This document shows, piece after piece, positions 9,901 to 39,102 of a DNA stretch of 64,000 nucleotides (position 1 is the stretch's first letter; each line of letters opens with the position of its first letter). This DNA comes from Candidatus Cloacimonadales bacterium (lineage in GTDB: Bacteria; Cloacimonadota; Cloacimonadia; Cloacimonadales; JAFGVF01). The stretch is taken from NCBI GenBank assembly GCA_963663475.2, contig CAXXJV010000001.1:2368001-2432000 (forward strand), written 5' to 3'. The position numbers and the translations under genes are program-made. Under the pieces are notes generated by a model. The model had not been told where the DNA came from and ran no database searches. It was given only the letters and a program-made list of their open reading frames with translations.

Positions 9901-10149
9901 TATTTCTTCTATAATTAAATCATCAATTTTGTCATAAGATTGCTGTGTATATCTGACAATCCTATTATTGATATTAGAAAGATTTTTTTGAGAATCTGAA
10001 ATTCTTTTATTGTTCAAGAAATCTAGGTTTCTGGAGTAAAAATAAAAGTCAACAAAGATTGATACAGTAGCTATAATAATTAAACTACTGATGATAATGT
10101 ATAAATTTAATCTCTTTACTCTTACTAAAATCTCTTTATTTTTTTTCAT
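6958..10149 (-). CDS. Hybrid sensor histidine kinase (Cache, TM, PAS, HisKA/HATPase, degenerate REC, REC)
   Basis: FLANMSHEIRTPMNG H-box, NAYKFT, DTGIG, GTGLGL; terminal REC with AEDN, FMDIQMP, PKP; periplasmic GYYYILD Cache-like region. Confidence 0.93.
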   Translation of the reverse strand: MKKNKEILVRVKRLNLYIIISSLIIIATVSIFVDFYFYSRNLDFLNNKRISDSQKNLSNINNRIVRYTQQSYDKIDDLIIEEIKKKTDQGKLVVEKILSKYKTASDVTKFEHIENAFRVSKFFNGRGYYYILDKSGKIIFNSVFPELENTDIANDEYTEKAQVIMDNESEGLFKGMMFKPGAEKQGKFLKWSYLSKIEGTDWYIGTGEYYYDFVDEYKTKLLNDILILKNSNYGFFYIIDILTNKFIIINNQIAINNPSILDTPTKVDDKILEDAIKVTQKNGEGFIDFHFSEGDPSIKEKALVKIDKIPEVNWIVASGIYENYINAFFESDRDQFRQKVITNLIIISSLIFLILIIYLLLNNRILAILKNLFNSLENFFHESIENDQLIAKDKLKYQEFQNIANSVNKMLISKKEISDKLIKDKIYIDQLMIENPEAIALVDKESNIMKINPAFTKVFGYTIEECKGKNIDELLCSPTEILQAKNNTKKVASGITVKFYANRVAKNNQIMNMFITGIPVIYHSNIEAVFGVYQDKTDIIEHDIALKVASEQALKTAKTKSQFLANMSHEIRTPMNGVIGMADLLAKTNLNEEQQDYVDTIKMSGESLLRIINDILDFSKLESGKDTFNFSDFVLSDCIEKSLDVIALKVQEKNVKLAYIIDEDVPTYINSDFDRLKQVLINTLNNAYKFTNQGLIQVKVSKESSYNNVLMLKFVISDTGIGIPEDKISTIFDSFSQVESEQSRNVTGTGLGLAISKAIITNLNGKIWVESKLGVGTRVSFTIATDSRILVSEHRSKFKYLENIKLGVISSKDVFDNLNSILKKYCKSVDQVADSDSLDSIEFFLDDWDIIIIDYSIYKSYSDNVNKFISNLNITNIGIVFLKDIKEVRQIEDINVPRYQFVNYPIHRQKLYESFRKLLGLENSNLNSKKEDVTEDDITKLKVLVAEDNLINQKLMNRLFKKLQITADLAQNGQEAYELALKNNYDVIFMDIQMPILNGLKATEIIKEKMQEKSPIVIALTANVLPEDKEKCIDAGMAGFLPKPVKLSDIKEILQKIIKKEIL

Positions 10150-10520: not shown

Positions 10521-11291
10521 CTATTTTGAATTTCTAAAGTTGATTATCTCGCCAGCTATACTAACAGCGATTTCATAGGGAGTATGAGATCTCATAGCGA
10601 GGCCAATAGGACATCTAACTTTTTGAATAATTTCTTCTGTATGATTTTCAGATAAATATTGTTTTAATTCATGAGCTTTACTCTTACTTCCCATTACCCC
10701 AATGTACTTTATATCTTTATCGATTAGTTGGTTAGTTACAATATTGTCGAATTCATGACCATAAGTCATTATAACAATATAATCAGCAGGACTGATTGCT
10801 ATATTTTCATTTATATGAGTAAAATCTGCTTTAATAAATGTGGTATTCTCTGGGAAATTAGCTGGTTTGAGCCATTGGTCTCGGTCATCGTAAATAGTAA
10901 TATTAAAATCTAATTGTGCTAATAGTCTGGAAAGAGCTTGCGAACAGTGACCTCCACCGAAAATTACAACCCTTTCTTTAACATTAATTGGCTCGACAAT
11001 CAGTTCAATATCGCCACCACAAACCATACCAAGCTCTGCTTGTTTCGAAAGAGGATAAACTAGGGTTATAAATTTGCTAGGTTGTTCCCGTCTAATCTTT
11101 TCAATAATATGATACTCAAGATTTCCACCACCAATAGTTCCAGATATCTCGTCATTATCTTTTGCAATAAGCATCTTTTGGCCTAAACTTCCTGGAGAAG
11201 ATCCTTGTACTTTAGTTACAGTAACAGACCATCCACTTCCGTTATTGGCTAATAAATCCAATAAATGTCTATAATAATTTTTCATTGTCAA
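10521..11291 (-). CDS. xdhC: XdhC/CoxI family molybdenum-hydroxylase maturation factor
   Basis: GSSPG, GTIGGG.LE, LGMVCGG, FGGGH, MTYGH.D, YIGVMGS, CPIGL...TPYEIAVSI. Confidence 0.92.
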   Translation of the reverse strand: MTMKNYYRHLLDLLANNGSGWSVTVTKVQGSSPGSLGQKMLIAKDNDEISGTIGGGNLEYHIIEKIRREQPSKFITLVYPLSKQAELGMVCGGDIELIVEPINVKERVVIFGGGHCSQALSRLLAQLDFNITIYDDRDQWLKPANFPENTTFIKADFTHINENIAISPADYIVIMTYGHEFDNIVTNQLIDKDIKYIGVMGSKSKAHELKQYLSENHTEEIIQKVRCPIGLAMRSHTPYEIAVSIAGEIINFRNSK

Positions 11292-11829
11292 TTAAATCCT
11301 CTTTTCTGTTGATATTTTTCAAAATTCCTGGATCATTTACAGTAATTATCTCTCGCTCACATGTTTTAGTCAAATCTTTTAAAGTTTCACTAATTTTTAG
11401 ATACTGCAAGGCTAATTTAGGCATGATAATAGGGTGTCCTAATTTTTGCTTATAAGCAGGTATGATAAATTTAGAGTTACTTCTAAATTTTAACATTTCT
11501 TCAATAGTAGATTCTTTGACTAAAGGATGATCAATAGGCCAAATAATAATATTATCAAAATCCTTAATCTCTTCAATACCTTTAATTATTGAATCATACA
11601 TATCAAGCTTACTATCACCTATTATAGTAGTAAAAAGTCTCTCTGGATTAATTAAATGATGCAAGTCAGAATTGATAACAGCAAAGACCGACAAGTTAAG
11701 GGAGAGACATTTAGATGTTATAATATCTAAAAAAGTCTCTCCTTTAAATTTTGCTAATGCTTTGTGAGATCCGAATCTTTTACTAGCACCAGCTGATAAT
11801 ATTAAAGCTATTGTTTTACTTGAGAGCAT
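11269..11829 (-). CDS. mocA: Molybdenum cofactor cytidylyltransferase-like nucleotidyltransferase (MocA/YgfJ)
   Basis: LSAGASKRFGSHKAL, PIDHP, GHP, NIN motifs; start probably 11829 (track gives 11850). Confidence 0.8.
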   Translation of the reverse strand: MLSSKTIALILSAGASKRFGSHKALAKFKGETFLDIITSKCLSLNLSVFAVINSDLHHLINPERLFTTIIGDSKLDMYDSIIKGIEEIKDFDNIIIWPIDHPLVKESTIEEMLKFRSNSKFIIPAYKQKLGHPIIMPKLALQYLKISETLKDLTKTCEREIITVNDPGILKNINRKEDLIDNEKLL

Positions 11830-13294
11830 CCAATAGCCCAGTTCGAGCATTAAATTCTTTTATATATTCATCCCATTGATTAACTTGAGAGTACTGAGAA
11901 GTCCAGTAATCTTTTTGATACCATTGGGCATTTAATTCTTCAACAGTCTTTCCTTGTTGTTCAATCCAAGTGAAATATTTCAAATTATGCATTCGGCGTT
12001 TATCATAATAGGTCATTTCAATCATATCATCTGTCTTCACTGCCATAAGATTCTTTTCAAAATGAATATTTGCCATCACATTATTATATTGGCCTTGTTT
12101 TTCACGATATTCTATAACACGTGATTGATACATTTCCATTGAATCAGTTGCCACTGTAAAGATGTAATCATTTTCATCATACTCATAATACTTTGCCATT
12201 TTAATACAACCAAGTAAGTTAGCTATTGATGATACTCCTAATAAATCTAACTTTGATATTAAGTCTTCATCTATGCCTTTTTGTCTGAGTAAGTCATGTC
12301 CTTCTTTTTCATTGAAAAGACGCATTACATTGATAACATCATTATCATCTACAGCGATTGCCATATCCATATTTTTTATGTTATGAATCCATGGAACATG
12401 TTTATCTCCAATACCCTCAATCCGGTGTCCTCCATATCCATTATAGAGCAAAGTAGGACATTGAGTGGCTTCGCCAGCTGCTATTTTCATGTTAGGATAT
12501 ACTTCTTTAAGATAATCTCCAGAACCTAATGTGCCAGCAGAACCCTGAGTTAAGAATAGACCAGAGAAAGTATCACCTTCTCTTTTGATATTTTCAAAGA
12601 CTTCTTGCATAGCAGGTCCAGTAACAGCATAGTGCCAGAGTGGATTACCAATCTCAGCAAATTGATTTAAATTTACTATTGTATCACCTCTTTCATGAAG
12701 AAGTTCTTTTGCTTTATCGTATATTTCTTTAACATTAGATTCACAACCTGGTGTTGCAAAAACCTCTGCACCAATTTCTTTTAACCAATTAAATCTTTCT
12801 GCAGACATCTCTTCTGGTAACACAGCAATAGCTTCACAGCCTAATAGTGATGAATTATAAGCTCCACCTCGACAATAGTTACCTGTTGATGGCCAGAGAG
12901 CTTTTTGAGTAGTTGGGTCAAACCTTCCTGTAACTAGCTTTTCAACTAAAGGGCCAAATGTTGCTCCAACCTTATGAGCTCCTGTTGGAAAAAACTTACC
13001 AATTAGTATTACGATTGGACTCTTCACACCACTTAGTTCAGGTGGAATTACAATGTGATTAACACCTTGATAGCCTCCCCCAAATTTAGTTGGCTCATTC
13101 TTCCATGTTATTCTAAATAGATTTAATGGGTTTAAATCCCACAATCCAACATTTTTTAGTTTATCGACAATTTTATCTGGAATTAGTTCTGGATTTCTCA
13201 TTTGCTCGTATGTTGGGATAATAATATTTCTTTCTTTACAGCGTTGGATTGTATTTTCAAGTACTTTATTTTGTTCTGGTGTTAAGTTTTTCAT
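11816..13294 (-). CDS. PLP-dependent fold-type II enzyme (extended cysteine-synthase-like, 492 aa)
   Basis: FPTGAHKVGA (PLP Lys), PSTGNY, QGSAGT, HRIEGIGDK; substrate unknown. Confidence 0.8.
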   Translation of the reverse strand: MKNLTPEQNKVLENTIQRCKERNIIIPTYEQMRNPELIPDKIVDKLKNVGLWDLNPLNLFRITWKNEPTKFGGGYQGVNHIVIPPELSGVKSPIVILIGKFFPTGAHKVGATFGPLVEKLVTGRFDPTTQKALWPSTGNYCRGGAYNSSLLGCEAIAVLPEEMSAERFNWLKEIGAEVFATPGCESNVKEIYDKAKELLHERGDTIVNLNQFAEIGNPLWHYAVTGPAMQEVFENIKREGDTFSGLFLTQGSAGTLGSGDYLKEVYPNMKIAAGEATQCPTLLYNGYGGHRIEGIGDKHVPWIHNIKNMDMAIAVDDNDVINVMRLFNEKEGHDLLRQKGIDEDLISKLDLLGVSSIANLLGCIKMAKYYEYDENDYIFTVATDSMEMYQSRVIEYREKQGQYNNVMANIHFEKNLMAVKTDDMIEMTYYDKRRMHNLKYFTWIEQQGKTVEELNAQWYQKDYWTSQYSQVNQWDEYIKEFNARTGLLDALK

Positions 13295-13302
13295 TAAATC
13301 TC

Positions 13303-14490
13303 CTAAAAACGATATTTTAAGTTGTTTTGAATTTTACTAATTATTTGTTCTGGTGAATCGAACCTTGTAAGAATAGCCATTGCAGCAATTACAAATGGTT
13401 TAAAGCTAGCTTGATGATAAGTTTCTCTTCGATACTCTTCAAATACTTCTTTTGAAACTTCACCTTGAGAACAACTTACATCAGTTATATCAGCAGGCAA
13501 ACAATGCATGTAGAGAGCTTTTTTATTCTTTGTTAAGTTCATTTTAGCTCTATCACATTCCCAATTAACATATTTTTTGTTATTCTCTAAACAAGATTTT
13601 TCTAATTCATCTAAACCAAGCTTATCTTTGGCCATCAGTAATTCAGTCCTTTCTTGCATTACTTGCATTGGAGCCCATGATTTTGGATAAACAATATCTG
13701 CACCTTGGAAGGCTTCTTCCATAGAATTAGTTATTGAGAATTTAGAGTTTGATTCAGAGGCAATTCTTTTTGCATAATTTATTTCTTCATCAAGTAGATT
13801 ATAACCTTCTGGGTGAGCAAGAGTAACATCCATACCTAAACGTGGAAGTAAAGTAATAATTCCTTGAGGGACTGATAAAGGTTTACCATAACTTGGAGAA
13901 TAAGCCCAGGTCATAGCAACTTTCTTTCCTTTTAACTTGTCAAATCCTCCAAAATAATCTCGAAGTTTAGCTAAATCAGCCATGGTTTGGGTTGGGTGAT
14001 CTATATCACATTGTAGGTTTATTAGACCAGGACGTTGGTGGAGTACCCCTTCTTCGTAACCCATATCTAAGGCATCTGACACTTCTTTCATGTAAGTATG
14101 ACCTTCACCTAAATACATATCATCCCTAATACCAATCATTTCTGCAAGGAAGGATATCATATTAGCAGTTTCTCGAACAGTTTCTCCATGAGCAATTTGA
14201 GATTTAACTTCATCAAGATCTTGTACACCTAATCCTAAAGCATTAGCTGCTGAGGAGAAACTAAATCTAGTTCTTGTTGAATTATCTCGAAAAATTGATA
14301 TAGCCAAGCCGTTATCAAAGACTCTAAATGATTTATGATTTTGGTGGATTAACTTAAGCCAATCAGCGAGAAGAACTGTAGCTTTAATATGATCAAAAGA
14401 CTTATCTTTGGTAAGTAAGAAGTTTCTTCCATAATTATCAAAATTGAAATCCATTATTTTCTCAAATAAATTAGTCATGTTTTCTCTCAT
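13303..14490 (-). CDS. ygeW: YgeW-family carbamoyltransferase
   Basis: FRDNSTRTRFSF, KSQIAHGETVRET, LQCDIDHPTQ, WAYSPSYGKPLSVPQG, YPKSW, MHCLPADI. Confidence 0.95.
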   Translation of the reverse strand: MRENMTNLFEKIMDFNFDNYGRNFLLTKDKSFDHIKATVLLADWLKLIHQNHKSFRVFDNGLAISIFRDNSTRTRFSFSSAANALGLGVQDLDEVKSQIAHGETVRETANMISFLAEMIGIRDDMYLGEGHTYMKEVSDALDMGYEEGVLHQRPGLINLQCDIDHPTQTMADLAKLRDYFGGFDKLKGKKVAMTWAYSPSYGKPLSVPQGIITLLPRLGMDVTLAHPEGYNLLDEEINYAKRIASESNSKFSITNSMEEAFQGADIVYPKSWAPMQVMQERTELLMAKDKLGLDELEKSCLENNKKYVNWECDRAKMNLTKNKKALYMHCLPADITDVSCSQGEVSKEVFEEYRRETYHQASFKPFVIAAMAILTRFDSPEQIISKIQNNLKYRF

Positions 14491-14957: not shown

Positions 14958-17185
14958 AAATCCTCCAACAGCATTGGTAATTTTTTCATTCTCTGGCCAC
15001 TTGCTCTATATATGGCATTAGCTATTGCTGGTGATATAATTTCTAATGCTGGTTCTCCTATACCCTTAGCTCCTGATGGAGTATTTGGGTCTGGATTCTC
15101 TAGCACAAAATCATGAATTCTAGGCAATTCATTTGCTCTATAAATTCTATACTTGTTAAAGTTATCTGTTATAATATGACCATCTTTTATTATTAAGTTC
15201 TCCTTTAAAGCCATTCCTAAACCTTGAACAATTCCTCCATAAATCTGACCAGATAATAGTCCATTATTTATTGCCTTACCAATATCATGAACAGCATAAA
15301 TATTTAAGACTTTCAAATTTTTCCTATCAGTATCAATCTCAATTTCGGCTACTTGAGCACTATAGACATAAGTAAAATATGCTTTACCTGCGCCACATTC
15401 TTCGTCCCAAGTAACTGCTGGAGCTTCGAAACTTCCAAAAGCATAGGGATAAGTACAGTTCTGATACATTATCGACATAGCCTCTTCCCAAGAGATACTC
15501 TTACCTTGTGGACTATTCAATGTATCGTTAAGGTAGATAATTTCATTAGGCTGACAACCTAAATGAGGAGCTATAACATTATTAATAATAACTTTCAGCT
15601 TTTTTATAGCATCCATCAAAGCTCCCCCACCCATTAGAGTACCTCTAGAAGCAACAGTTGTTCCTCCGTCAGGTATCTGTGAAGTAGATGATCTTCTATA
15701 ACGAATTTTTGAGAAAGAAACACCAAGTTCTTCCTGTAAAATTTTCATCATTGCAGTTTCTGAGCCCTGACCATTTTCATGAATAGATACTTCAAGTAAA
15801 ATAGAGCCATCAAACTGAACATTTATTATTGCTGAAGTAAAATCCTTACCTTCGGCTCCTAGACTGCATCCCCTATAGGACATTGCTAAACCTATGCCAT
15901 AGAGTTTTGAGTTATGACTTTTCCCATAAGAAACTTTTTTGATTTTATTAAAGTAATCACTCTCTTTAATTACCTTATCTAAAACTTGATCTAAAGAAAC
16001 AATATGATTATCAAGTTTTTGCTGAGAAACAGTTATTGAATTTTGCCTTAACATATTCTCTTTTCTAAATTCGATAGCATCCTTTCCTAATTTCTCCGCA
16101 ATAATTTCAACAATTTGCTCTATAGCAAAGTTTACTTGCGGAGATCCAAAGCCTCTAAAAGCACCTGTATAAACATTGTTTGTATAAAATGATTTAACAT
16201 CAGTATAGACATGAGGGATTATGTAAGGTCCGCCACATTGAACAGTTGACCTCCAAGTAACCCAAGGAGAAACAGAGGTATAAGCTCCCCCATCTGCTAT
16301 GATATTACATTCTAAAGCATGAATTTTGCCAGCTTTAATGCCAACTTTATAATCCATTTTATAAGGATGCCTTTTATAACTTTCTTTAATCGACCATTCT
16401 CTTGTATAAGTCATTTTTACTGGTCTATTACATAAGAGTGAAGCCAAAGCAGTTCTAGCACATACTATAGCAGCGGTATCATCTTTACCACCAAAACCTC
16501 CTCCCATAGGAATAGTAATAACTTCTATTTCAGAAAGTTTTTTTCCTAGCATGGCTGCAGTAAATCTTCTTGTGGAAAAAGGATGCTGCATTGATCCATA
16601 TACTTCAATAACGCCGTCATCTCTCACTTGACAAACTGCTGCTTCTGCTTCTAGGTAACCATGTTCAACAAAATTACTTTCATAATGATCTTCAAGAATT
16701 AAGTCACACTCTGCAAAAGCAGACTTTGCATCACCCTTTCTTACCTTATGATGATTTATTAAATTGCTTCCATATACTTCATGAATTAATACTTCATCTT
16801 TACTAGCTTCCTCTGGAGAAAGAATTGCTGTTAAAGGCTGGTAAGTCACTTCTATTTTGGGTATAGCTTGCATAGCATGTTCAAGACTGTCAGCCACAAT
16901 AAGGGCTATTACATCTCCCTCATACCTTATCTTATCTTCAGCTAATAAAGAATAATCTTTGCGAATCTGTCCAAACTTCTTAACTCCAGGTATATCAGAA
17001 GCTGTAATTACTTTGACAACCCCTTCACTTAACTCAGCTTTTCCACATACTATGCTTTTAATCTCTGCATGTACCTGATCAGAATATACAGGAACACAAT
17101 GAAGCATACCATATAACTTTATATCGTCAGCATACTTAGCTTTTCCTGTTACTTTTGCAACTCCATCATTTCTCCATTGGGTCAT
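14942..17185 (-). CDS. Molybdopterin-binding catalytic subunit, xanthine dehydrogenase family (second, divergent copy)
   Basis: KVTGKAKYADD, GGGFGGKDD, AFRGFGSPQ, ENGQG, ASRG, GAKGIGEP. Confidence 0.9.
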   Translation of the reverse strand: MTQWRNDGVAKVTGKAKYADDIKLYGMLHCVPVYSDQVHAEIKSIVCGKAELSEGVVKVITASDIPGVKKFGQIRKDYSLLAEDKIRYEGDVIALIVADSLEHAMQAIPKIEVTYQPLTAILSPEEASKDEVLIHEVYGSNLINHHKVRKGDAKSAFAECDLILEDHYESNFVEHGYLEAEAAVCQVRDDGVIEVYGSMQHPFSTRRFTAAMLGKKLSEIEVITIPMGGGFGGKDDTAAIVCARTALASLLCNRPVKMTYTREWSIKESYKRHPYKMDYKVGIKAGKIHALECNIIADGGAYTSVSPWVTWRSTVQCGGPYIIPHVYTDVKSFYTNNVYTGAFRGFGSPQVNFAIEQIVEIIAEKLGKDAIEFRKENMLRQNSITVSQQKLDNHIVSLDQVLDKVIKESDYFNKIKKVSYGKSHNSKLYGIGLAMSYRGCSLGAEGKDFTSAIINVQFDGSILLEVSIHENGQGSETAMMKILQEELGVSFSKIRYRRSSTSQIPDGGTTVASRGTLMGGGALMDAIKKLKVIINNVIAPHLGCQPNEIIYLNDTLNSPQGKSISWEEAMSIMYQNCTYPYAFGSFEAPAVTWDEECGAGKAYFTYVYSAQVAEIEIDTDRKNLKVLNIYAVHDIGKAINNGLLSGQIYGGIVQGLGMALKENLIIKDGHIITDNFNKYRIYRANELPRIHDFVLENPDPNTPSGAKGIGEPALEIISPAIANAIYRASGQRMKKLPMLLEDLWKQL

Positions 17186-18507
17186 ATAATACTTCCTCTT
17201 GGTGTGTTTGTAAGAAATTCTCCATTTTCTACTAAGAAGTCACCACTTTTCATTACCTTATAAATATTTAATGAAGTTGTTAAATCTTCATATGGATTAT
17301 AAATACCTTGTCTTCCTTCAATTGGGTGTTCACGATCAAAATCAATAACAACTAAATCTGCCATTGAACCTTCTTTGATTATTCCTTTATCTGGATATAA
17401 GCCAGCTAGATGGGCAGGTTCTGATGAAAATTTATTTTGCAGAAACTTTGCTTTATCAAAATCTCTATCAAAGATATTCGCTGTTAAATAAGGTATGAAA
17501 TCTAAACCATCAAGTCCGCCTGGAGCCTTAGAATAGAATGTTTTACCTATCATCTTTTGATTGATAGTAAAAGGACAATGATCTGAGGCTATTATATTAA
17601 AATAGTTTAATTTAAAACCTTCAGCTATCTTTCTGGCATTTTCTTTATCTCTGAGTGGAGGCGCACAGATTAATTGCTCTCCATATGACTCAGTATATTT
17701 TGTGTTATCTAAGAAAATGTACTGAGGACAGGTCTCACAACTAACATAATTATTGTATTTAAGTCTGTTAATTAGCTCCATTGCCTCAACAGTTGAGACA
17801 TGAACAATATGGAAATGAGCACCTGTTGAACGAGCAATTCTAAGAATTCTATTAACAGCAGTTAACTCTACAGTTTTAGATCGTACTCGCGATATGTTAT
17901 TTAAAGAAGTCTTGTGTAGTTTTATAGACTTAGTCTTTATCAAGTCATCATCTTCACAATGAACTAATATTAAAACTTGTTTATCAACATATCGTTTAGC
18001 AAATTCTTCTATCTCATGGTAAGTTGAGTATATTCCAGCTTTTTTATAGGTTGTATATAATTTAAAAGTAGTAAAACCTTCTTCTATGAGTTCTGATATT
18101 GTTTTATGGCTTTCTTCATCAAAAGTAGTAGGAGTTAAATGCCAACCAACATCACACCATAAATTATCTTTGGCTTTTTGATGTGTCCTCTCAACTGCTT
18201 GACGTAAACTTTCTCCCTTCCTCTGAGTGATAAAGCTAAATAGACTTGTTATACCATTCTTTAAAGCTACTCTAGTACCTGAATCATAGTTATCAGCAAT
18301 AGGTATTCCGTTTATCTCATCATCTAGATGTACATGAAAATCTATAAAGCCAGGTAAAACAAATTTAAAATCAATATCAGTAACATCCCAGTCAGATTCT
18401 GCTTTAATTTCATCAGCAATTTTTACAATAGTATCTTTATCAATTAATATATCTTGATTTATAATAACATCTTCACTAATTAAGCTACAATTCTTTAATA
18501 GTTTCAT
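17182..18507 (-). CDS. hydA: Cyclic amidohydrolase (dihydropyrimidinase/hydantoinase, HyuA/HydA-like)
   Basis: PGFIDFHVH, FKLY (carboxy-Lys), VHCED, VHVS, ETCPQY, PPLR, SDHCP. Confidence 0.85.
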   Translation of the reverse strand: MKLLKNCSLISEDVIINQDILIDKDTIVKIADEIKAESDWDVTDIDFKFVLPGFIDFHVHLDDEINGIPIADNYDSGTRVALKNGITSLFSFITQRKGESLRQAVERTHQKAKDNLWCDVGWHLTPTTFDEESHKTISELIEEGFTTFKLYTTYKKAGIYSTYHEIEEFAKRYVDKQVLILVHCEDDDLIKTKSIKLHKTSLNNISRVRSKTVELTAVNRILRIARSTGAHFHIVHVSTVEAMELINRLKYNNYVSCETCPQYIFLDNTKYTESYGEQLICAPPLRDKENARKIAEGFKLNYFNIIASDHCPFTINQKMIGKTFYSKAPGGLDGLDFIPYLTANIFDRDFDKAKFLQNKFSSEPAHLAGLYPDKGIIKEGSMADLVVIDFDREHPIEGRQGIYNPYEDLTTSLNIYKVMKSGDFLVENGEFLTNTPRGSII

Positions 18508-18514: not shown

Positions 18515-19651
18515 CTAATAATTTAAAATTGAATTTATATCTTTCAACCCGTGACCTGTAAGTAATAGAACAATCTGTGAATTTTGCATAAATTTATCTG
18601 TAAGATTGAAAATCTCAGCTACAACAGCTGAAGAAGGCTCACAAAATATGCCTGTATTACTAGCTATAATAAATTGGTAATCAACAATATTTTCATCTTC
18701 TACCTCAAGCATAAAGCCAGAAGATTCTTGAATTGCACGGAGAGCTAAGTCTGCACAAGCTGGACTCTTCACAGAAATTGAATCTGCAATTGTATCTGCA
18801 CAATCAAGCGACTTATATTTTCCACTTTTCCAATACCTATAAATCGCGTTAGATTTGTTACTTTGAACTCCAATAATTTTGGGAACAGAAGAAGATATTC
18901 CGAGATCTTGTAAATCTTTAAAGCCCTTATAAAGACCAGAAATAATCACACCATCACCAACAGGAACTACTACATAATCAGGAACTTTATAATTATTTTG
19001 CTTGAAAATCTCGATTGCTGAGCTCTTCTTGCCTTCAATCGTTATTGGATTATAGCCAGTGTTTCTGTTAAGTGTCTTATAAAGACTAGTGTAATTAATT
19101 GATTTTTCATAAGCATCATCATAAGAACCATCTACTAGCTCTAAATCAGCACCGTAAGCAATATTTTGCGCTCTTTTGCCTAATGGGGCTTTTGCAGGTA
19201 TAAAAATTTTAGCTGAAATTTCTGTTGCTGCACAGATTCCAGCTAATGAAGATCCAGCATTTCCTGTTGAAGCACAAACTATTTTATCAATATTGTGGTG
19301 TTTTGCTTGAGCTAAAACCCAGTAAGAAGCTCGGTCTTTATAAGATCCAGTGGGATTAACTGTATCATTTTTTAACCAGATATCTAGATTTACTTTTTTA
19401 CTTAATTTATCAGCATGATAGAAAGGGGTATCACCAACTTTAATGTTGGGCAGATCCTTTTCATTAAAAGGGAAAAATTTGTTAATATCTAGTTCTTCTT
19501 TAATTAAAGCTTTATCATCTTCATCATATATAATTTCTAAGACACCACTAAGCTTATTACCAGGTGTCCACTCTTTACCACAATCATCACATAAGTATTT
19601 GATTTGGTTAATATCATATTCTCTCTTGCACTTACTACATACGTATTTCAT
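18515..19651 (-). CDS. Threonine-synthase-like PLP-dependent enzyme with N-terminal Zn ribbon
   Basis: CxxC...CxxC, GDTP, NPTGSYKDR, ASTGNAG, EGKKS, PVGDG, CEPSSA, LTGHGLKD; embedded in a catabolic operon. Confidence 0.82.
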   Translation of the reverse strand: MKYVCSKCKREYDINQIKYLCDDCGKEWTPGNKLSGVLEIIYDEDDKALIKEELDINKFFPFNEKDLPNIKVGDTPFYHADKLSKKVNLDIWLKNDTVNPTGSYKDRASYWVLAQAKHHNIDKIVCASTGNAGSSLAGICAATEISAKIFIPAKAPLGKRAQNIAYGADLELVDGSYDDAYEKSINYTSLYKTLNRNTGYNPITIEGKKSSAIEIFKQNNYKVPDYVVVPVGDGVIISGLYKGFKDLQDLGISSSVPKIIGVQSNKSNAIYRYWKSGKYKSLDCADTIADSISVKSPACADLALRAIQESSGFMLEVEDENIVDYQFIIASNTGIFCEPSSAVVAEIFNLTDKFMQNSQIVLLLTGHGLKDINSILNY

Positions 19652-20594: not shown

Positions 20595-21797
20595 TTACTC
20601 CTTTAGTGTTTTAATGTAAGAAGTATAGAATGCAGTTGCCTTCCATAAATCTTCTCTTTTCACCTTTTCATTTGGTGCATGTGCTTGATCTTCATCACCA
20701 GGTCCAAATCCTAAACATTTGATTTCAGGATGTTTACCCATAATGAAAACACAGTTAGTACTAAAAGTCCACTTATCAACAAGTGGCTCGTTATTAAATA
20801 TAGAGGAATATCCCTTTTTTGCAACTTTTAAATATTTAGAATCTTCACTCAAAACCCAAGTTGGATAGTATTTTTCTACTGGATATATTTTACCAGTGTA
20901 TGCTTTCTCTTTGTATTCCAGAACCTTAACTTCTGCATCTGGATAACCAGCTAAAGCACAACATTCTTTAAGCTCATTTACAGCTATTTCTTTAGTTTCT
21001 CCATCAGTTAATCTTCTATCACATTGAAGATAAACGTAGTCAGATACTGCACATTGAGATGGAGAATCTGATTTCATCACAGATACTGTAATAGTTCCTT
21101 TGCCTAGGAAATCATCATGTTTCAATCTTTCATTTAATTTTTCAATCTCTAAGGCGATACGAGACATTTTATAGATTGCATTATCGCCTCTTTCTGGAGC
21201 AGAACCATGACATGATATACCCTTAACTTCAATAGATATCTCCATTCTTCCCCTATGACCTCTGTAAATATTACAGCTTGTAGGTTCTGTACTTATTACA
21301 AGTTCTGGCTTAATTCCATCTTCTAAAATTAAATGTTCCCATGCTATGCCATCACAATCTTCTTCCATCACAGTTCCTGTAATAAGGACAGTAAAGTCTT
21401 CAAGAAGATCGTATTTTTTCATCAACCAACCAGCATAAACCATGGAAGCAAGTCCACTCTTTTGATCAGAAGTACCTCTTCCATATACATAAGTATCATC
21501 AATTTCACCACTATAAGGTTCTCTATCCCAGTTAGCAAGATTTCCCTCATAGACAGTATCTATATGAGCATCAATTGCAATTAGTCTTGGTCCGGAACCA
21601 ATTCTACCGATAATAGAACCTAGTTGGTCAATCCTGACTTCATCATAACCTAATTTTTCCATTTCTTCTTTGATTAAGAGGACAACTTCTTTCTCTGTTC
21701 CTGAATGTGATCTACATTTTATTAATCTACTTAAAAAATCTGCAATTTGTGGTTCTATTTCTTGTGATTCTTTTAAAATATTTTCATAGCTTATCAT
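20595..21797 (-). CDS. ygeY: YgeY-family M20 metallohydrolase
   Basis: DAHIDTV, GRGTSDQK, VMEEDCDG, YRGHRGR, SCHGSAPERGDNAIYKM, DKWTFSTN, AHAPNE. Confidence 0.95.
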   Translation of the reverse strand: MISYENILKESQEIEPQIADFLSRLIKCRSHSGTEKEVVLLIKEEMEKLGYDEVRIDQLGSIIGRIGSGPRLIAIDAHIDTVYEGNLANWDREPYSGEIDDTYVYGRGTSDQKSGLASMVYAGWLMKKYDLLEDFTVLITGTVMEEDCDGIAWEHLILEDGIKPELVISTEPTSCNIYRGHRGRMEISIEVKGISCHGSAPERGDNAIYKMSRIALEIEKLNERLKHDDFLGKGTITVSVMKSDSPSQCAVSDYVYLQCDRRLTDGETKEIAVNELKECCALAGYPDAEVKVLEYKEKAYTGKIYPVEKYYPTWVLSEDSKYLKVAKKGYSSIFNNEPLVDKWTFSTNCVFIMGKHPEIKCLGFGPGDEDQAHAPNEKVKREDLWKATAFYTSYIKTLKE

Positions 21798-21798: not shown

Positions 21799-23115
21799 TT
21801 ATAATCTCTCCCATAATTTTTTTGCTAGTTCACGTGAATGTTTGTTTATATGATGTTGATCAATGAAATCTTCAAACTGATTATTATGCCATAAAATCTT
21901 TCCATTAGATATGGTAGTTGAAACATTTGCCTCAGCAATACCAAAGACTATATGGCCATAGACATTATCCTTATTCAAAGGCGTGATAGGATCGTAATCA
22001 AGAATAATTAAATCTGCAAAATTCCCTTCTTTAATTAAACCAAATTTATCAGTATCCCATAATCTATTAGCTATTGCTGCATTATTTTCTAAGAGTGTTG
22101 AAGCAATTTCCATAAAGCCACAGGAAGGATTGTTTTGCTTAATATGCTGTAACCAGAGAGCAATTCTCATTTCATTACCCATATTATTTGTCATAGCATC
22201 TGTGCCTAGTCCTACTAAAATACCATCATTAATCTGTTTAAGAACATTAGAAATTCCCACAGCATTATTGAGATTAGATTCAGGATTATGTACGATAATA
22301 CCCTGATTTTCTTTTATGATAGCTCTATCAGTATCAGAAATATTCACGCAATGTGCTAAGATTGATTTTTCATTAACAATACCAAATTTTGCCAATCTTT
22401 CTACTACCGACATACCATATTTAGCTTGAGCATCAACTTCATCTGCCTTATCTTCCGAAACATGAATATGATAACCATAAGCTTGAGTATTCTTAGTAAC
22501 AATCTCTTTAAGGGTATCATCTGAAAGAGTAAAAGAAGCGTGAAGTCCTATCAAACCAGTAATATCTGGATTATTATTCTCTTGGATAAAGGAGAAGTTT
22601 TCTAAGATGCCAGCATCTTTAATATCTTGACCATCGCGGTCAGAAATCTCATAACACAAAGAGGCTTTAACACCCATTCTTTCAACAGCCTTAGCAATTT
22701 CAGGCAAAGAATTTGTTACAGCATAAGGGCTAGCATGGTGGTCTATGAAAGTAGTAACACCTTTTTTAATTCCATCCATAATAGCAGTTAATGCACTATA
22801 ATGACTATCCTCTAAGAGAAGTTTCTTATCTAGACGCCACCACATGTTTTCTAGTACTTCTACAAAATTATCAGAAGCTGCTATACCACCAATACCTTTA
22901 GCAAAAGAACTATAAAAATGAGTATGAGCATTTATATATCCAGGCATAACTATCTTATATTTAGCATCAATTACTCTATCAAAAGCATCTTCATTAAGTT
23001 TATCCTTGTTGATACTTTTTATATATTTTCCATCAATCTCTATATTGCTATTTTCCAATAAGATATTACTTTTATCTAAAGTAATTACTCTTGCATTCTT
23101 AATTAATATTTTCAT
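21799..23115 (-). CDS. ssnA: SsnA-family aminohydrolase
   Basis: INAHTHFYS, LENMWWRLD, DHHASP, CYEISDRDG, GLHASFT, HNPESNLNNAVG; start 23115 overlaps the upstream stop (TAATG). Confidence 0.93.
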   Translation of the reverse strand: MKILIKNARVITLDKSNILLENSNIEIDGKYIKSINKDKLNEDAFDRVIDAKYKIVMPGYINAHTHFYSSFAKGIGGIAASDNFVEVLENMWWRLDKKLLLEDSHYSALTAIMDGIKKGVTTFIDHHASPYAVTNSLPEIAKAVERMGVKASLCYEISDRDGQDIKDAGILENFSFIQENNNPDITGLIGLHASFTLSDDTLKEIVTKNTQAYGYHIHVSEDKADEVDAQAKYGMSVVERLAKFGIVNEKSILAHCVNISDTDRAIIKENQGIIVHNPESNLNNAVGISNVLKQINDGILVGLGTDAMTNNMGNEMRIALWLQHIKQNNPSCGFMEIASTLLENNAAIANRLWDTDKFGLIKEGNFADLIILDYDPITPLNKDNVYGHIVFGIAEANVSTTISNGKILWHNNQFEDFIDQHHINKHSRELAKKLWERL

Positions 23116-25577
23116 TAGCTTCTTGCCTCCTCTGGACTTCTTTGACGCATGAATAGGGCTCCGCTGAAACACTTTTGCACGCATATGGAGCAACCAATAC
23201 ATTTACTTGCGTCTGTAACTGGTATTTTGTCTTCATTTAATGTGATAGCTAGATATGGACATCTGCTACAGTTTCCACAATGTTCACATAAATCAGGGTC
23301 AACATCTGAGATTCTCTTTACAGGAGAGATATCCATGAAATCTAGTATTGGACTAGGGAGTGCTACACCTATTAAGTCATCGATACTTTTCATACCTCTA
23401 TCTTTCATCATATAAGCTAAGCCTTGTTCTAAATCTTTAATAACCCCTACTCCATCTTTCATTACTGCAGTACAGAACTGAACTGTCTTACAGCCTAAAG
23501 CAAGGAAATCAGCAGCATCTTTATAGTTCATAGTTCCTCCGTTGCCAGAGATTGTCAGGCCTAAAGGAGCTGCTTTTGATAGGGTAAGATTAGAAATATA
23601 CTTAACAGAATCTCCAGACATACCTACCATTATTCCATCTTCCCATTCCTCTTTAACATCTTTTCTGAAAGCAACACTTGGGAAGGAGTTCGCTAGAGTT
23701 ATACCTGCTTTTTTATTAGAGTATTTGGCAAAAACTTGCTTAATTGCTTCTAAAATAGGAACAATTGAAGTTACTGCTCCAGTTAGTTTGAAAAGTTTAG
23801 GGATTTCAGAATCAGAAACCTCTAATACCCAATCTATCACTTTAGCGGCTAGTTCTGCATTTTGTGAGACAATATCGCCTTCAGTTCCATCTCCACCTTG
23901 AGGACATGATAAACTATACTCAACACCATGAACTTTAGCAGAATCTATAAGCTTAGTATTTGCTTGCCATACAGCCTTATCTTCCTCATCATGACCTGTT
24001 ACTGGTCCACCAGTAGATACTATAGTTAACCTATCTGGGAATTCAGTAATAATGTTCTTAGCATTAGCCAGTACTTTTCTTAGTGGTACTTCAGAAACAT
24101 TATCGCAGTTAGCATAGGTTTCTTGGTTAAACTCGAACATATAATCGTGTGGGATATGGATATCTAAATCATCAAAAGCAGTTTTCATAACAGCTCCAGC
24201 CCAACCAGCCTCATATGCTTTTTTAACTTGGTCATAACCATCAGAAGGTGGTGCAGCTGAAAGAATAAATGGTGATATCATTTCTCTTCCAAAGAAGTCT
24301 GCCTTTATGGAAACATCTTTTGTATAAGTATCTTTGAGCCCCAAATATGATTTAACATGTTTATCAGGTATTTCTGCATCAATGCTTTGTCCGAAACTTC
24401 TTAGAACTTCAACAGCACAGTTGCGACCACTAGCTACAGCTTCCACAACTGTTGTAGCATTATTTCTTAAATCACCACATTTAAAAACTTTACCCTTAGC
24501 AATGTCATTTTCAATACTGGATCTACTACCAACTGCAAAAATAACATAATCGTAAAAATCAGAGTGAAACTCGGTATTAGCTATTTTTTCAATCTTAGAT
24601 AAGTCAAAGTCTCTACCATGTAGTTTTACTCTTTGGCAATGAAGCTTTAAGCCATTTTCATCAGACTCTATTTCTTTAACAATAGTTCTAAAATAATTTC
24701 CAAAATTATTGTTAAGTAACTCTTTTTGCTCTTTTGAATCTAATCTCATTTCAGATAAATTCTCTAAAGTGAAGAAATCAACAACTTCAGCACCACTATT
24801 GACTGCTTTCATACCACAGTCCATTGCTACTGCTCCCCCACCTATAATAGCATATCTGGAATTGTCTTCTAGTTTTGCTAGACTCAAGAATGACTTCCAA
24901 TCATGAGCTAACTCTTTGCCATGAATGTTTAGTTTTATGGCTTGATCTTGACCACTAGCTAGAATAACTGCATCATACATTTCAGCAAACTTATCTAAAT
25001 CCATAATATTTGTTTTGTTATAAACTCTGATATTATCATGATTTATTGCCTGATTAATATCACTTTCCAAAACTTCTTTATTGAGTCTGTATTCTGGAAT
25101 AAAATCACACATACCACCTAAAATATCTTCTCTTTCAAAGATATCAACATTTACTCCATACTGAGCTAAAATATTAGCACATCCTATACCTGAAGGTCCT
25201 CCACCAATAATACCCACTTTCTTTTTTATAGATTCATTTTGCTGGAATTCTGGTTTAAAACCTAAGTCTTTACCCATCTGGATAATCTTAGCTTGTACAT
25301 CAGGAATTTTAATGGGGTTATCAAAAGTTTGTCTGGAACAGGCTGCCATACAATGATAATCTGGACAGACAGAACCACAGATTCCTCCTAGAATATTTTT
25401 TGATAAAATAATTGTAGAAGCTCTTTTTATATCGCTATCAGCCCCATTTTTTACCGCTTTGATAAATTCAGCAGGTGAGCAAGAAACTGGGCAAGCATCC
25501 ATACAAGGCATTTCTTCACAGTAGACACATCTATCTACTTCATTTTTAAATTGGGCATCAGTTAAAAATTTATACAT
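23115..25577 (-). CDS. Single-chain dihydropyrimidine-dehydrogenase-like flavo-Fe-S reductase (GltD/PreT-like + FMN barrel + 2x[4Fe-4S])
   Basis: N-terminal RCVYCEEMPCMDACP and CGSVCP...C; GGGPSG and GGGAVAMD Rossmann motifs; AGWAGAVMKT, SLSCPQG, ISGNGG, VQFCT; C-terminal CxxCxxCxxC and CxxCxxCxxxC; ATG 25577 has an AGAGAGG RBS. Confidence 0.85.
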   Translation of the reverse strand: MYKFLTDAQFKNEVDRCVYCEEMPCMDACPVSCSPAEFIKAVKNGADSDIKRASTIILSKNILGGICGSVCPDYHCMAACSRQTFDNPIKIPDVQAKIIQMGKDLGFKPEFQQNESIKKKVGIIGGGPSGIGCANILAQYGVNVDIFEREDILGGMCDFIPEYRLNKEVLESDINQAINHDNIRVYNKTNIMDLDKFAEMYDAVILASGQDQAIKLNIHGKELAHDWKSFLSLAKLEDNSRYAIIGGGAVAMDCGMKAVNSGAEVVDFFTLENLSEMRLDSKEQKELLNNNFGNYFRTIVKEIESDENGLKLHCQRVKLHGRDFDLSKIEKIANTEFHSDFYDYVIFAVGSRSSIENDIAKGKVFKCGDLRNNATTVVEAVASGRNCAVEVLRSFGQSIDAEIPDKHVKSYLGLKDTYTKDVSIKADFFGREMISPFILSAAPPSDGYDQVKKAYEAGWAGAVMKTAFDDLDIHIPHDYMFEFNQETYANCDNVSEVPLRKVLANAKNIITEFPDRLTIVSTGGPVTGHDEEDKAVWQANTKLIDSAKVHGVEYSLSCPQGGDGTEGDIVSQNAELAAKVIDWVLEVSDSEIPKLFKLTGAVTSIVPILEAIKQVFAKYSNKKAGITLANSFPSVAFRKDVKEEWEDGIMVGMSGDSVKYISNLTLSKAAPLGLTISGNGGTMNYKDAADFLALGCKTVQFCTAVMKDGVGVIKDLEQGLAYMMKDRGMKSIDDLIGVALPSPILDFMDISPVKRISDVDPDLCEHCGNCSRCPYLAITLNEDKIPVTDASKCIGCSICVQKCFSGALFMRQRSPEEARS

Positions 25578-27885
25578 ATAAACCTCTCTTTTTAATATCT
25601 TCAATTGCCAACAAGACAGCTTCCGGAGTTGCTGGCATTTTTAGCTTAATAGTTTCCGGAGACTTAGTTACATAACTTATAGCATTCATTATTGAGAACC
25701 AACCTGCTAAGCCATAAAGGAAAGGTGGTTCTCCCACAGCCTTAGACCCAAGAACACTTGCCTGAGATCTTTCTTTATTTACTTGTTTTACCACGAAATT
25801 TGAACAAACATCACTCATAGTTGGAATTTTATAGGTTGAAGGAGTAGTTGCCATACTTTCTCCTTTGTCATTATATCTTACTTCTTCCATTGTACAATAG
25901 CCTAATCCTTGAACCGTAGCTCCATATATTTGACCTAAATCAATCTCTTTGTTAATAGGAATTCCATTGTCATGAGCAATATAAATTGATTCAAAACTAT
26001 ATTCCCCAGTTAGGATATCAACTTCAGAGACTATTAAGCTCGCGCCATAAACGAAATAATAAAAGGGATTTCCCTTATTTGTAATTTTATCAAAATGTAT
26101 ATCTGGAGTCTTATAAAAACTATGTTCTCCAAGATCAATTCTATTCATATAAGCATAGTGGGCAAGTTCTTTAAAAGTAATTTTCTCATTAGGAAAGTTA
26201 CTAGAATAAACCATATTATCAGCAAAAACAATATCTGTTTCTTGAGTTTGTATTTGATATTTCTCTATTAGTAAATCTACAGCAGCTTTTCTTAATCTAG
26301 CTTTCAAGTTTTCGCTAGCTTGTCTAGCAGCATTTCCATTTAAATCAGAACCTGAAGAAGCTGCAGTAGGAGATGAGTTCCCCACTCTTTTAGTGTTAGT
26401 ACTTTCGCTTCTAACATTATCAATAGAGATACCTAGAGTTTCACTAACAATTGTAGCAACCTTAGTATATAATTGTTGGCCCATTTCAATCCCGCCATGA
26501 CTGAGAGATATAGAGCCATCTGAATATATCCAGATTAAGGCTGATCCTTGGTTTAGGAAAGTAGCGGTAAAAGAGATACCAAATTTACCTGTAACAATAC
26601 CTATTCCTTTCTTTTTATACCTATGCTTCTTATTGAAGTCATTGATTTCAGCTTTTAATTTTTTATAATTAGAAATTGCTTCAAGTTCTTCTAACATCTC
26701 TAAGCCTAAGGCTTCTTTAACTTCCATTCCGTATTGGGTTGTTTGACCTACCCTATAAACATTCTTCTTCCTAATCTCTAGCAAATCCATTCCTAAGGAA
26801 TAAGCAACTTTCTCTAAGGCTAGTTCAGTAGTAATAATTGACTGGGGAGCTCCAAAACCTCGAAAAGCAGTATTAGAAGGCAAATTAGTCCTGTAAGCAG
26901 TTCCTGTAACATGCATTTTAGGGATATAATAACCGCTATCAGAATGAAGTAAACCTCTTTCTAGAATTGCGAATGATAAATCTATATAAGCACCACCATT
27001 TGCCTTTAAGTCTAGCCTATAGTCTAACAACTTTCCTGATTTATTGAATTTTATAGTATAATCATTAACAAACTCATGTCTCTTACCAGTCCAACTAATA
27101 TCATCTTTTCTCTCAAGAGCTAAATACACAGGTTTTTTGAGATTATAAGCTGCAATAGTAGTAATGCCTGCCCAGAGGGTTGCTTGTGCTTCCTTACCTC
27201 CAAAAGCTCCTCCTAACCTTCTCACATCAACAGTAATGTAATTAGAAGATACTCCTAGTAGTCTGGCACATATTTCCTGAACTTCTGAAACAGCTTGTGT
27301 AGAGCTATAGACAGTAAAGTAGCCATTCTCTTCACAATTAACAAAGCATCTTTGTGTTTCAAAATAAAAATGCTCCTGAGCTCCAACTGTTAATTGACCT
27401 GATATTACTTTTAGATCTTCTTCTTGGTCTGGGAAATTGTCTATTCTTTGGAATAGCCTTGTTGGGCCATATTCAGTTTTAGCTTCCACTGCTTGCTGAA
27501 CTTTAAGAATTGCCTTCAAATCTTGGTATTCTACTTTTATTTTTCTACTCAAACTAATAGCAGATTCTAAAGTCTTAGCTACCACAATAGCAATAGGTTC
27601 CCCAACATAATTTACTTGATTTTCAGCTAAAAGAGGTTGCTGGTCACCATTTCCATGAGCAATATTATTTTCTCCAGGAAGGTCTTTATATGTTAAAAGC
27701 TTAACAAAGTTGGGATTATCTTCAATAGCCTGACAATCTATACTAAGTATTTTAGCTTTTGCCTTAGAACTTACCAGTGGATAAGCATATAGGCATTCAG
27801 CTACTCCTTGGGCAATATTCTCAACAAAAGTAGAAGAGCCTTTAACATGTAATTTTCCTGAGAGGTGTTTTGAATTAACTTTCAT
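25570..27885 (-). CDS. xdhB: Xanthine dehydrogenase molybdopterin-binding subunit
   Basis: QEHFYFETQ, RLGGAFGGKE, SNTAFRGFG, KFGISFT, HGGIEMGQ, SPTAASSGSDLNG, SKAVGEPP. Confidence 0.93.
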   Translation of the reverse strand: MKVNSKHLSGKLHVKGSSTFVENIAQGVAECLYAYPLVSSKAKAKILSIDCQAIEDNPNFVKLLTYKDLPGENNIAHGNGDQQPLLAENQVNYVGEPIAIVVAKTLESAISLSRKIKVEYQDLKAILKVQQAVEAKTEYGPTRLFQRIDNFPDQEEDLKVISGQLTVGAQEHFYFETQRCFVNCEENGYFTVYSSTQAVSEVQEICARLLGVSSNYITVDVRRLGGAFGGKEAQATLWAGITTIAAYNLKKPVYLALERKDDISWTGKRHEFVNDYTIKFNKSGKLLDYRLDLKANGGAYIDLSFAILERGLLHSDSGYYIPKMHVTGTAYRTNLPSNTAFRGFGAPQSIITTELALEKVAYSLGMDLLEIRKKNVYRVGQTTQYGMEVKEALGLEMLEELEAISNYKKLKAEINDFNKKHRYKKKGIGIVTGKFGISFTATFLNQGSALIWIYSDGSISLSHGGIEMGQQLYTKVATIVSETLGISIDNVRSESTNTKRVGNSSPTAASSGSDLNGNAARQASENLKARLRKAAVDLLIEKYQIQTQETDIVFADNMVYSSNFPNEKITFKELAHYAYMNRIDLGEHSFYKTPDIHFDKITNKGNPFYYFVYGASLIVSEVDILTGEYSFESIYIAHDNGIPINKEIDLGQIYGATVQGLGYCTMEEVRYNDKGESMATTPSTYKIPTMSDVCSNFVVKQVNKERSQASVLGSKAVGEPPFLYGLAGWFSIMNAISYVTKSPETIKLKMPATPEAVLLAIEDIKKRGLYV

Positions 27886-39090: not shown

Positions 39091-39102
39091 TTGGAGGATT
39101 TA

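Follow-up and report, generated by a model that had tools for sequence, protein, structure and literature searches.

A cysteine-synthase-like PLP enzyme next to YgeW in a urate-type gene cluster of Cloacimonadota, and a possible YgeX-independent ending of reductive urate degradation

The steps of the reductive urate pathway became known only in 2025, and YgeX defines its end. According to the texts of the reports, 2,3-diureidopropionate is acted on by YgeW (phosphorolysis) and YgeY (hydrolysis), giving albizziin and 2,3-diaminopropionate (10.1101/2025.05.19.654654; 10.1101/2025.04.24.650524; PMC12990295), and YgeX then forms pyruvate and ammonia (10.1101/2025.05.19.654654; PMC12507026; 10.1101/2025.04.24.650524; PMC12990295). 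A 64,000-nucleotide (nt) stretch of DNA from a Candidatus Cloacimonadales bacterium (contig CAXXJV010000001.1, positions 2,368,001 to 2,432,000; hereafter the window) carries a cluster of this type in which the gene after ygeW encodes not YgeX but a 492-amino-acid (aa) pyridoxal 5′-phosphate (PLP) enzyme resembling cysteine synthase. We use PLP492 as a working name for this product and for its family, whose members we define as being about 460–500 aa long and as having, around a CysK-like core, an N-terminal extension that is conserved and, towards the C terminus, an HNLKY-TW-EQQG block. What does such an enzyme do in a urate cluster? Our leading answer, which we regard as evenly balanced between right and wrong, is that PLP492 was recruited to act in the lower half of the pathway and that, together with a second PLP enzyme resembling threonine synthase (ThrC-like), it would provide an ending independent of YgeX.

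PLP492 belongs to the fold-type II PLP enzymes. Its open reading frame (ORF) has an ATG start on the minus strand, the plus-strand translation of the same interval being full of stops, and contains the motifs FFPTGAHKVGA (with Lys108), WPSTGNYCRGG and GGHRIEGIGDKH. The ORF and the three motifs, on which the initial annotation of the window had based its fold assignment, were confirmed, as was a match to PALP (PF00291), the sole Pfam match of the protein (62.6 bits, cut-off 35; residues 103–333). The best NCBIfam match is cysK (TIGR01139) at 108.9 bits, with a cut-off of 350.95; TIGR01136 gives 107.3 bits (cut-off 344.15) and TIGR01138 47.1 bits (cut-off 394.2), and the models for CBS, SbnA (TIGR03945, 49.7 bits against 349.95), CysM and cysteate synthase all score below cysK. 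Since the cysK score lies so far under its cut-off, PLP492 is a fold-type II enzyme but not a CysK equivalog. The YgeX model (TIGR03528) is absent among its nine NCBIfam matches at E ≤ 1e-5, and the β subunit of 2-amino-4-oxopentanoate thiolase (OrtB, NF040741) gave no match at this threshold. In a family alignment of 30 sequences from several phyla, the active-site hallmarks K108, S136-T-G-N139, N210-Q-F, G251-S-x-G-T255, H290-x-I-E-G-I-G and S355 are invariant; K108 is assigned as the putative Schiff-base lysine and G251-S-x-G-T255 as the putative glycine-rich phosphate loop by analogy with CysK.

The long N- and C-terminal extensions pointed out in the initial annotation are conserved parts of the protein. 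Invariant columns of the same alignment span P27 to N482, both extensions included, the C-terminal HNLKY-TW-EQQG block is conserved, and the extra conserved residues beyond the CysK-type core number about 75–100 per end, or about 170 together. The AlphaFold2 model (pLDDT 90.5, pTM 0.92) has as its top Foldseek matches β-cyanoalanine synthase, CysK and CBS (3vc3, 8sru, 6c2h; TMt 0.79–0.84), with the H2S-producing enzyme Fn1055 at rank 20 and DcsD (3x44) at rank 28, and a sequence search of the PDB matched CysK (8t2c, E 1.7e-23). Foldseek covers only about 316–358 of the 492 residues on CysK-type chains (TMq about 0.55); because only the core portion is aligned, the extensions are without a solved counterpart, and neither the PDB sequence search nor Foldseek returned a structure that covers them. 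Fold and intact PLP site are established by these results.

The family is large and widespread. A word-indexed database search gave at least 8000 relatives, too many for a chance ORF, of which the best 120 are 70–95% identical over 97–100% of the length (486–503 aa) and are named just ‘pyridoxal-phosphate dependent enzyme’ or ‘cysteine synthase’. At least 594 species stretches in GTDB (one genome per species) encode a relative; the best 80 of these loci, at 57–73% identity, come from Cloacimonadota, Bacteroidales, Spirochaetia, Caldisericaceae, Anaerolineae and other Chloroflexota, Clostridia, Halanaerobiales, Lentisphaeria, KSB1 and others. HMMER over 50%-identity representatives found 293 matches at E ≤ 1e-30, many of them fragments, with full-length subfamilies of 461–562 aa at 31–60% identity; subfamilies at 33–46% identity retain the family motif blocks. 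One subfamily at 41–46% identity (about 465 aa) keeps these motifs and directly adjoins SsnA (loci L105 and L113), but has G-I in place of C141-R142, which are invariant in the core clade. In the ESM Atlas only unnamed PALP clusters of 481–490 aa match, and full-text searches found no literature on the family. PLP492 forms a branch of its own in the CysK/CBS superfamily, uncharacterised, unnamed and highly conserved. The texts of both urate-pathway papers, supplementary tables aside, mention no alternative PLP enzymes (10.1101/2025.05.19.654654 / PMC12507026; 10.1101/2025.04.24.650524). The neighbourhood analysis described in one of these texts scored ‘YgeX’ by Pfam PF00291 (PMC12507026), a procedure by which YgeX, PLP492 and the ThrC-like enzyme would be merged.

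The window (Table 1) holds the reductive urate (2,8-dioxopurine) cluster in a variant form: SsnA, YgeY and YgeW score over curated cut-offs and stand in one operon-like run with a hydantoinase, a reductase and a molybdenum (Mo) hydroxylase. All genes from 10521 to 30585 lie on the minus strand, and the order of transcription begins with a guanine-deaminase-like amidohydrolase, the iron-sulfur (FeS)/flavin adenine dinucleotide (FAD) and Mo subunits of a xanthine dehydrogenase (XDH), an 829-aa PreA/GltD-type reductase, SsnA, YgeY and a DUF3078 protein, and continues with the ThrC-like PLP enzyme, a HyuA-like hydantoinase, a second Mo subunit and its 2Fe-2S subunit, YgeW, PLP492, MocA and XdhC. 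The initial annotation had placed PLP492 directly after ygeW, and this holds: YgeW, over both of its cut-offs, is immediately upstream, with 8 nt between its stop and the PLP492 start. Carbamate kinase is absent from the window cluster; the only one in the genome over the cut-off (399 bits) lies on contig 1 at 38396–39325, about 2.3 Mb from YgeW, whereas in many related clusters this gene is directly beside PLP492.

The association recurs in other species. In the best 80 of the at least 594 loci, on GTDB contigs from one genome per species, neighbouring genes were assigned by tblastn and ORF clustering. The ThrC-like enzyme is the most constant partner of the PLP492 family (32–36 loci), with a carbamoyltransferase of the YgeW or 330-aa OTC-like type near PLP492 in 24–25, carbamate kinase in 20, a Mo hydroxylase in 19–20, a dihydropyrimidinase/hydantoinase in 17–18, an SsnA-like protein in 12–14, an FAD subunit in 12–13 and a YgeY-like protein in 11–12. 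No YgeX-like gene was found within 10 kb of PLP492 in any of the 80. The PLP492 ORF was recognised in 73 of these loci, being masked by an antisense ORF in the other 7, and within two genes on either side of it there are 30 ThrC-like enzymes, nine hydantoinases, eight carbamate kinases, seven SsnA/GuaD-like proteins and six carbamoyltransferases. At least one purine-cluster marker occurs in 50 of the 80 loci, and in 31 of the 41 that are longer than 15 kb. PLP492 is linked at the level of the operon to YgeW or OTC-like carbamoyltransferases, carbamate kinase, SsnA and, above all, the ThrC-like enzyme, and YgeX is missing from nearly all of these clusters.

Two further arrangements were seen. 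Variant clusters without YgeY (L086–L091, L095, L096) hold two OTC-like carbamoyltransferases together with carbamate kinase, by which both ureido groups could be conserved as carbamoyl phosphate. In a Cloacimonadales record (L022), the gene directly downstream of the PLP492 homologue (11503–12801) encodes a protein of 433 aa with three RidA (L-PSP) domains in tandem; as a single case, this would fit an enzyme that releases aminoacrylate.

Distribution was followed in 201 genomes of the same phylum, one genome set serving for every gene profile. PLP492 is present in 163 and the ThrC-like gene in 164 of them, with per-family tallies of the two that nearly mirror each other; YgeW is found in 112 (107 over the cut-off), SsnA in 111 at E ≤ 1e-100, the threshold used for counting its holders (80 over the cut-off), a YgeX-like gene in 19 (2 over the cut-off) and CysK/CysM in 14. 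Among the 111 SsnA-positive genomes, 104 hold PLP492 and 8 a YgeX-like gene; the 7 without PLP492 are 82–97% complete. Family f3 has PLP492 in 69 of its 88 genomes, SsnA in 71, YgeW in 68, the ThrC-like gene in 73 and YgeX in none. YgeW and PLP492 lay less than 1 kb apart on one contig in all 25 genomes checked from the top of the YgeW table, and far apart in six genomes of family f13.

A second sample, of 251 Clostridia-type genomes, holds PLP492 in 28 (19 at ≥52% identity, 9 at 41–46%), YgeX in 33 and SsnA in 57. SsnA accompanies PLP492 in 22 of the 28 holders and YgeX in 14 of the 33. The 57 SsnA-positive genomes divide into 14 with PLP492 only, 6 with YgeX only, 8 with both and 29 with neither. 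Within 15 kb of SsnA, PLP492 is found in 13 genomes and YgeX in 7, both occurring only in genome G209 (L102), where the order is SsnA, ThrC-like, PLP492, four other genes (the first sigma-factor-like) and YgeX. Two kinds of gene order are seen: canonical clusters (L114, L116, L117) read YgeY-YgeW-carbamate kinase-YgeX-SsnA and have neither PLP492 nor the ThrC-like gene, and PLP492-type clusters (L106–L111) read [YgeY-OTC-like]-PLP492-ThrC-like-(regulator)-[hydantoinase or xanthine/uracil permease]-Mo/FAD/FeS-SsnA, with YgeX absent. The regulator after the PLP492/ThrC-like pair, 182–185 aa long (in L109 at 8227–8778), combines an XRE-type helix-turn-helix with a cupin domain; with xanthine/uracil permeases near, it is likely a ligand-sensing regulator of the Clostridia-type cluster. 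SsnA neighbourhoods were also inspected in 16 Clostridia-type genomes without PLP492 and YgeX. Most of them contain Mo hydroxylases and ABC transporters but lack lower-pathway genes, and for this reason they revealed no third ending of the pathway. Two of the 16 contain 33%-identical matches to PLP492: that of L128 keeps the family motifs, and that of L132 (356 aa) is an ordinary CysK-type sequence.

Under the proposed recruitment into the urate pathway, PLP492 of YgeX-less clusters would take the α-amino acid, albizziin or diaminopropionate, that is freed by the adjacent carbamoyltransferase. It would expel the β-nitrogen group to give a PLP-aminoacrylate intermediate, which would go on to pyruvate and ammonia. 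It would act alongside the ThrC-like PLP enzyme, whose share may be the second substrate or the opposite enantiomer; pyruvate may be released by either of the two.

Several observations weigh against this reading. The initial annotation had noted no YgeX-like sequence, which holds for the window but not for the genome: a YgeX-like gene of 409 aa lies on contig 2 (371020–372204), unlinked to the cluster, as the only TIGR03528 match of this genome (494.6 bits against a cut-off of 532.25). It stands between a large ORF and one that by its translation resembles an outer-membrane protein, and a YgeX-like gene is also present in five of six other genomes of the genus. In the phylum, all 19 holders of a YgeX-like gene have PLP492 as well, and over both samples the two co-occur in 28 of 191 PLP492 holders (19 of 163 and 9 of 28), in G209 on the same contig stretch. 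At the thresholds used, 29 of the 57 SsnA-positive Clostridia-type genomes have neither gene. No purine-cluster marker was seen in 30 of the 80 PLP492 loci, many of which are on short contigs, and in spirochaete loci PLP492 adjoins sugar genes and a 2-hydroxyacid dehydrogenase. All 8 genomes of family f2 carry PLP492, in the order PLP492-RmuC-OTC-like, whereas SsnA and YgeW are each found in just 1 of these 8. In family f5, PLP492 is found in 45 of 52 genomes and SsnA in only 5 at the threshold used, which was counted against a simple pathway role; the f5 loci that were inspected nevertheless represent a variant cluster with an SsnA-like protein (34–35% identity), a 1031-aa reductase, two OTC-like transferases, carbamate kinase, PLP492, the ThrC-like enzyme and Mo/FeS/FAD subunits. 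Finally, we infer the substrate from neighbouring genes only, and the reaction chemistry is likewise conjectural, as is the way in which the work would be shared with the ThrC-like enzyme.

Because PLP492 occurs outside purine clusters and co-occurs with YgeX, it is not a strict one-for-one replacement of YgeX. The replacement proposed in the initial annotation survives in part: PLP492 does occupy a urate-type cluster beside YgeW, and YgeX is missing from the vicinity in all 80 loci, but the genome has its own YgeX-like gene, the two genes share genomes, and the ThrC-like enzyme could equally be the substitute. The mutual exclusivity with ygeX suggested as a check mostly holds within 15 kb of SsnA in the Clostridia-type sample and fails at the level of whole genomes.

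The ThrC-like enzyme, the closest partner of PLP492, had not been connected with it in the initial annotation. Its family profile scores 267–304 bits on solved threonine synthases (2zsj 304, 6cgq 299), and also matches solved threonine/serine dehydratases (98–115 bits); the protein of the window itself reaches 131.7 bits on the NCBIfam IlvA model. By such similarities, it would be no worse a candidate than PLP492 for the lyase step, and perhaps a better one, a further point against our preferred assignment. In this genome no CysK or CysM is found over the cut-off, PLP492, the ThrC-like protein and the YgeX-like gene being its only three fold-type II matches to the cysK model. CysE was not found (best TIGR01172 match 31.4 bits against a cut-off of 210.65), nor ThrB (best 42.9 against 168.25), nor a second ThrC, and homoserine dehydrogenase gave no matches. 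With CysK, CysE, ThrB, homoserine dehydrogenase and any other ThrC missing, neither PLP492 nor the ThrC-like protein is likely to be biosynthetic. The ThrC-like gene was considered as the biosynthetic threonine synthase of this genome and rejected, there being no homoserine dehydrogenase and no ThrB; its profile is nevertheless close to real threonine synthases, and the enzyme looks like a recruited threonine-synthase derivative. PLP492 was likewise considered as a stand-in for the missing CysK, and the distributions proved not to be complementary, since PLP492 is present in 13 of the 14 CysK holders among the 201 genomes. A complex prediction for PLP492 and the ThrC-like enzyme from family alignments scored 0.00, with a mark of 0.32, which says nothing either way on binding.

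CysK-type enzymes usually carry out β-replacement, retaining aminoacrylate for a second nucleophile, rather than releasing pyruvate. This general property tells against PLP492 as a lyase and leads to the first alternative, in which the ThrC-like enzyme would be the true substitute for YgeX and PLP492 would perform a β-replacement on the same aminoacrylate chemistry, for example making cysteine from diaminopropionate, albizziin or serine and sulfide, or exchanging a β-substituent. The dehydratase-type scores of the ThrC-like protein (79–132 bits on NCBIfam IlvA and threonine/serine dehydratase models) point this way, as do a weak match of one ThrC-like homologue to diaminopropionate ammonia-lyase (NF006058, 57 bits), the lack of canonical CysK in this genome and most of the phylum, and the presence of PLP492 and YgeX on one contig stretch in L102, as would be expected if their roles differ. 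However, the distributions of PLP492 and CysK are not complementary, as said above, PLP492-type genes occur without a ThrC-like gene nearby in L094, L099, L101, L105 and L113, and no sulfur-assimilation genes were seen among the neighbours examined. We consider this alternative rather unlikely.

A bolder form of the recruitment reading would make PLP492 and the ThrC-derived enzyme an unrecognised two-PLP-enzyme ending of urate degradation with chemistry beyond that of YgeX, for example the direct expulsion of urea or carbamate from (D- or L-) albizziin, or the resolution of D-intermediates; the ureido group could then sit in the pocket that serves for phosphate in threonine synthase. This we hold to be unlikely, a shade more so than the β-replacement alternative. 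As for the lyase that the initial annotation had imagined, acting on an albizziin-type intermediate with release of urea, nothing supports urea release, and such a shortcut is disfavoured because YgeY is retained in the cluster and paired OTC-like transferases are found in others.

The second alternative takes PLP492 as a housekeeping enzyme of amino-acid metabolism (an atypical cysteine synthase, an O-phosphoserine sulfhydrylase, or a serine/cysteine lyase), with a purine link that is incidental or regulatory. Its near-universal presence in the phylum (163 of 201), family f2 included, would be in keeping with such a role, as would the stand-alone loci that adjoin a SerA-like dehydrogenase, an EamA transporter or RmuC, and an identity of 57–73% across phyla, typical of central enzymes. 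The enrichment of SsnA among Clostridia-type PLP492 holders (22 of 28 against 57 of 251 overall) argues against it, and so does the missing CysE of this genome. Moreover, records from Cloacimonadota, Chloroflexota, Clostridia, Halanaerobiales, Spirochaetia and Lentisphaeria repeatedly place PLP492, as in an operon, beside genes for YgeW, OTC-like transferases, carbamate kinase, SsnA and the ThrC-like enzyme; we regard the housekeeping role as decidedly improbable. Most improbable of all is a cysteine or selenocysteine desulfhydrase-type enzyme that would provide the XdhC-bound Mo cofactor of the cluster hydroxylases with its terminal S or Se ligand, in spite of a PLP492 gene that adjoins MocA and/or XdhC in the window, L100 and L101 and lies near XdhC in L039, L042, L106, L110 and L111, and of Fn1055 among the fold matches, for within two genes XdhC (3 of 73) and MocA (2 of 73) are far rarer than the ThrC-like enzyme (30 of 73), PLP492 is absent from many Mo-hydroxylase clusters with SsnA (L118–L127), and known Mo cofactor sulfuration uses fold-type I NifS-like desulfurases.

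Table 1. Genes of the urate-type cluster in the window (positions in the window; scores in bits)
Feature	Position	Strand	Evidence
PLP492, 492-aa fold-type II PLP enzyme, CysK/CBS-like core and terminal extensions	11816..13294	-	ORF; PALP; cysK below cut-off
YgeW knotted carbamoyltransferase	13303..14490	-	NF005538 615.4 (cut-off 453); TIGR03316 597.4 (cut-off 500)
ThrC-like PLP enzyme, 378 aa, N-terminal Cys-rich ribbon	18515..19651	-	PALP 238; thrC TIGR00260 161.8 (cut-off 167.1)
YgeY family M20 hydrolase	20595..21797	-	NF009555 539, over cut-off
SsnA aminohydrolase	21799..23202	-	NF005540 512.3 and TIGR03314 465.5, both over cut-off
HyuA-like hydantoinase/dihydropyrimidinase	17182..18507	-	TIGR02033 276.6, below cut-off 393
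829-aa GltD-like + PreA/DHODH-like + ferredoxin reductase, YgfK/UacX position	23115..25604	-	NF006183, TIGR03315
Mo-hydroxylase large subunit, 747 aa	14942-17185	-	pucD/xdhB-type matches 420-434, below cut-offs
2Fe-2S subunit of Mo hydroxylase, 152 aa	14499-14957	-	ORF
Second xanthine-dehydrogenase-type enzyme: Mo 771 aa, FeS/FAD 491 aa	25570..29350	-	Translation reading and BLAST cross-matches, without family scan
MocA/YgfJ-like nucleotidyltransferase	11269-11850	-	TIGR03310 66, below cut-off; overlaps PLP492 3′ end by 35 nt
XdhC-like maturation factor	10521-11291	-	TIGR02964 150, below cut-off
DUF3078 protein, 281 aa, signal-peptide-like start	19746-20591	-	Between YgeY and ThrC-like gene

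Some other genes of the cluster call for comment. Between the SsnA ORF as listed and the reductase upstream of it there is an overlap of 88 nt, and the SsnA models match residues 32–467 of this ORF; from the overlap and the start of the match, SsnA probably begins at an internal Met close to residue 30. The reductase, which takes the YgfK position, is a fusion of a GltD-like N-terminal half (YgfK TIGR03315, 137 bits on residues 29–400, cut-off 835) and a PreA/DHODH-like C-terminal half (PreA NF006183, 197.7 bits on residues 433–819), with a ferredoxin motif; other members of the phylum have forms of about 1010–1090 aa in this position. The DUF3078 protein may serve as a channel through which purines cross the outer membrane into the cell. 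Beyond the downstream end of the cluster, and close to it, a hybrid sensor kinase of 1063 aa (6958–10149, minus strand) has PAS, histidine kinase and receiver domains by translation reading.

If PLP492 and the ThrC-like enzyme were indeed terminal in most YgeX-less anaerobes, surveys that score YgeX, or any PALP neighbour, would misjudge completion of the pathway. A conserved and unnamed enzyme family present in hundreds of species would gain a testable role, and a second natural system would be at hand in which to ask in what order the ureido groups are cleaved and which stereochemistry albizziin and diaminopropionate have.

Set beside known systems, the window cluster shares with the reductive urate pathway of E. 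coli, C. sporogenes and C. difficile the genes for SsnA, YgeY and YgeW, all over cut-off, as well as HyuA-like, YgfK/UacX-like and XdhD-like genes; it differs in lacking YgeX and carbamate kinase and in having two other PLP enzymes instead. With the core of CysK, β-cyanoalanine synthase and CBS, PLP492 has in common the Asn-loop, the Gly-rich phosphate loop, the HxIxGIG motif and a Ser at the pyridine nitrogen. Its Lys motif, however, is AHKVG, unlike that of CysK, which we take to be S-x-K-D-R (the CysK-type sequence of L132 has SLKDR); its Asn-loop reads STGNYCR, with C141-R142 invariant in the core clade; and its genomic context is purine catabolism, in a genome without CysE. The O-ureido-L-serine synthase DcsD and the diaminopropionate precursor synthase SbnA are CysK-family enzymes that deal with ureido- or amino-substituted β-positions, but both are biosynthetic, are about 300–340 aa long without the extensions of PLP492, and stand in other contexts, and PLP492 is no closer to them than to ordinary CysK. 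YgeX itself (TIGR03528) is of the same PLP fold type. In E. coli the ygeX slot presumably follows ygeW, in agreement with the gene list in PMC12507026, and PLP492 occupies this same slot in the urate cluster of the window, although it belongs to a different branch of the fold-type II enzymes and is usually paired with a second PLP enzyme.

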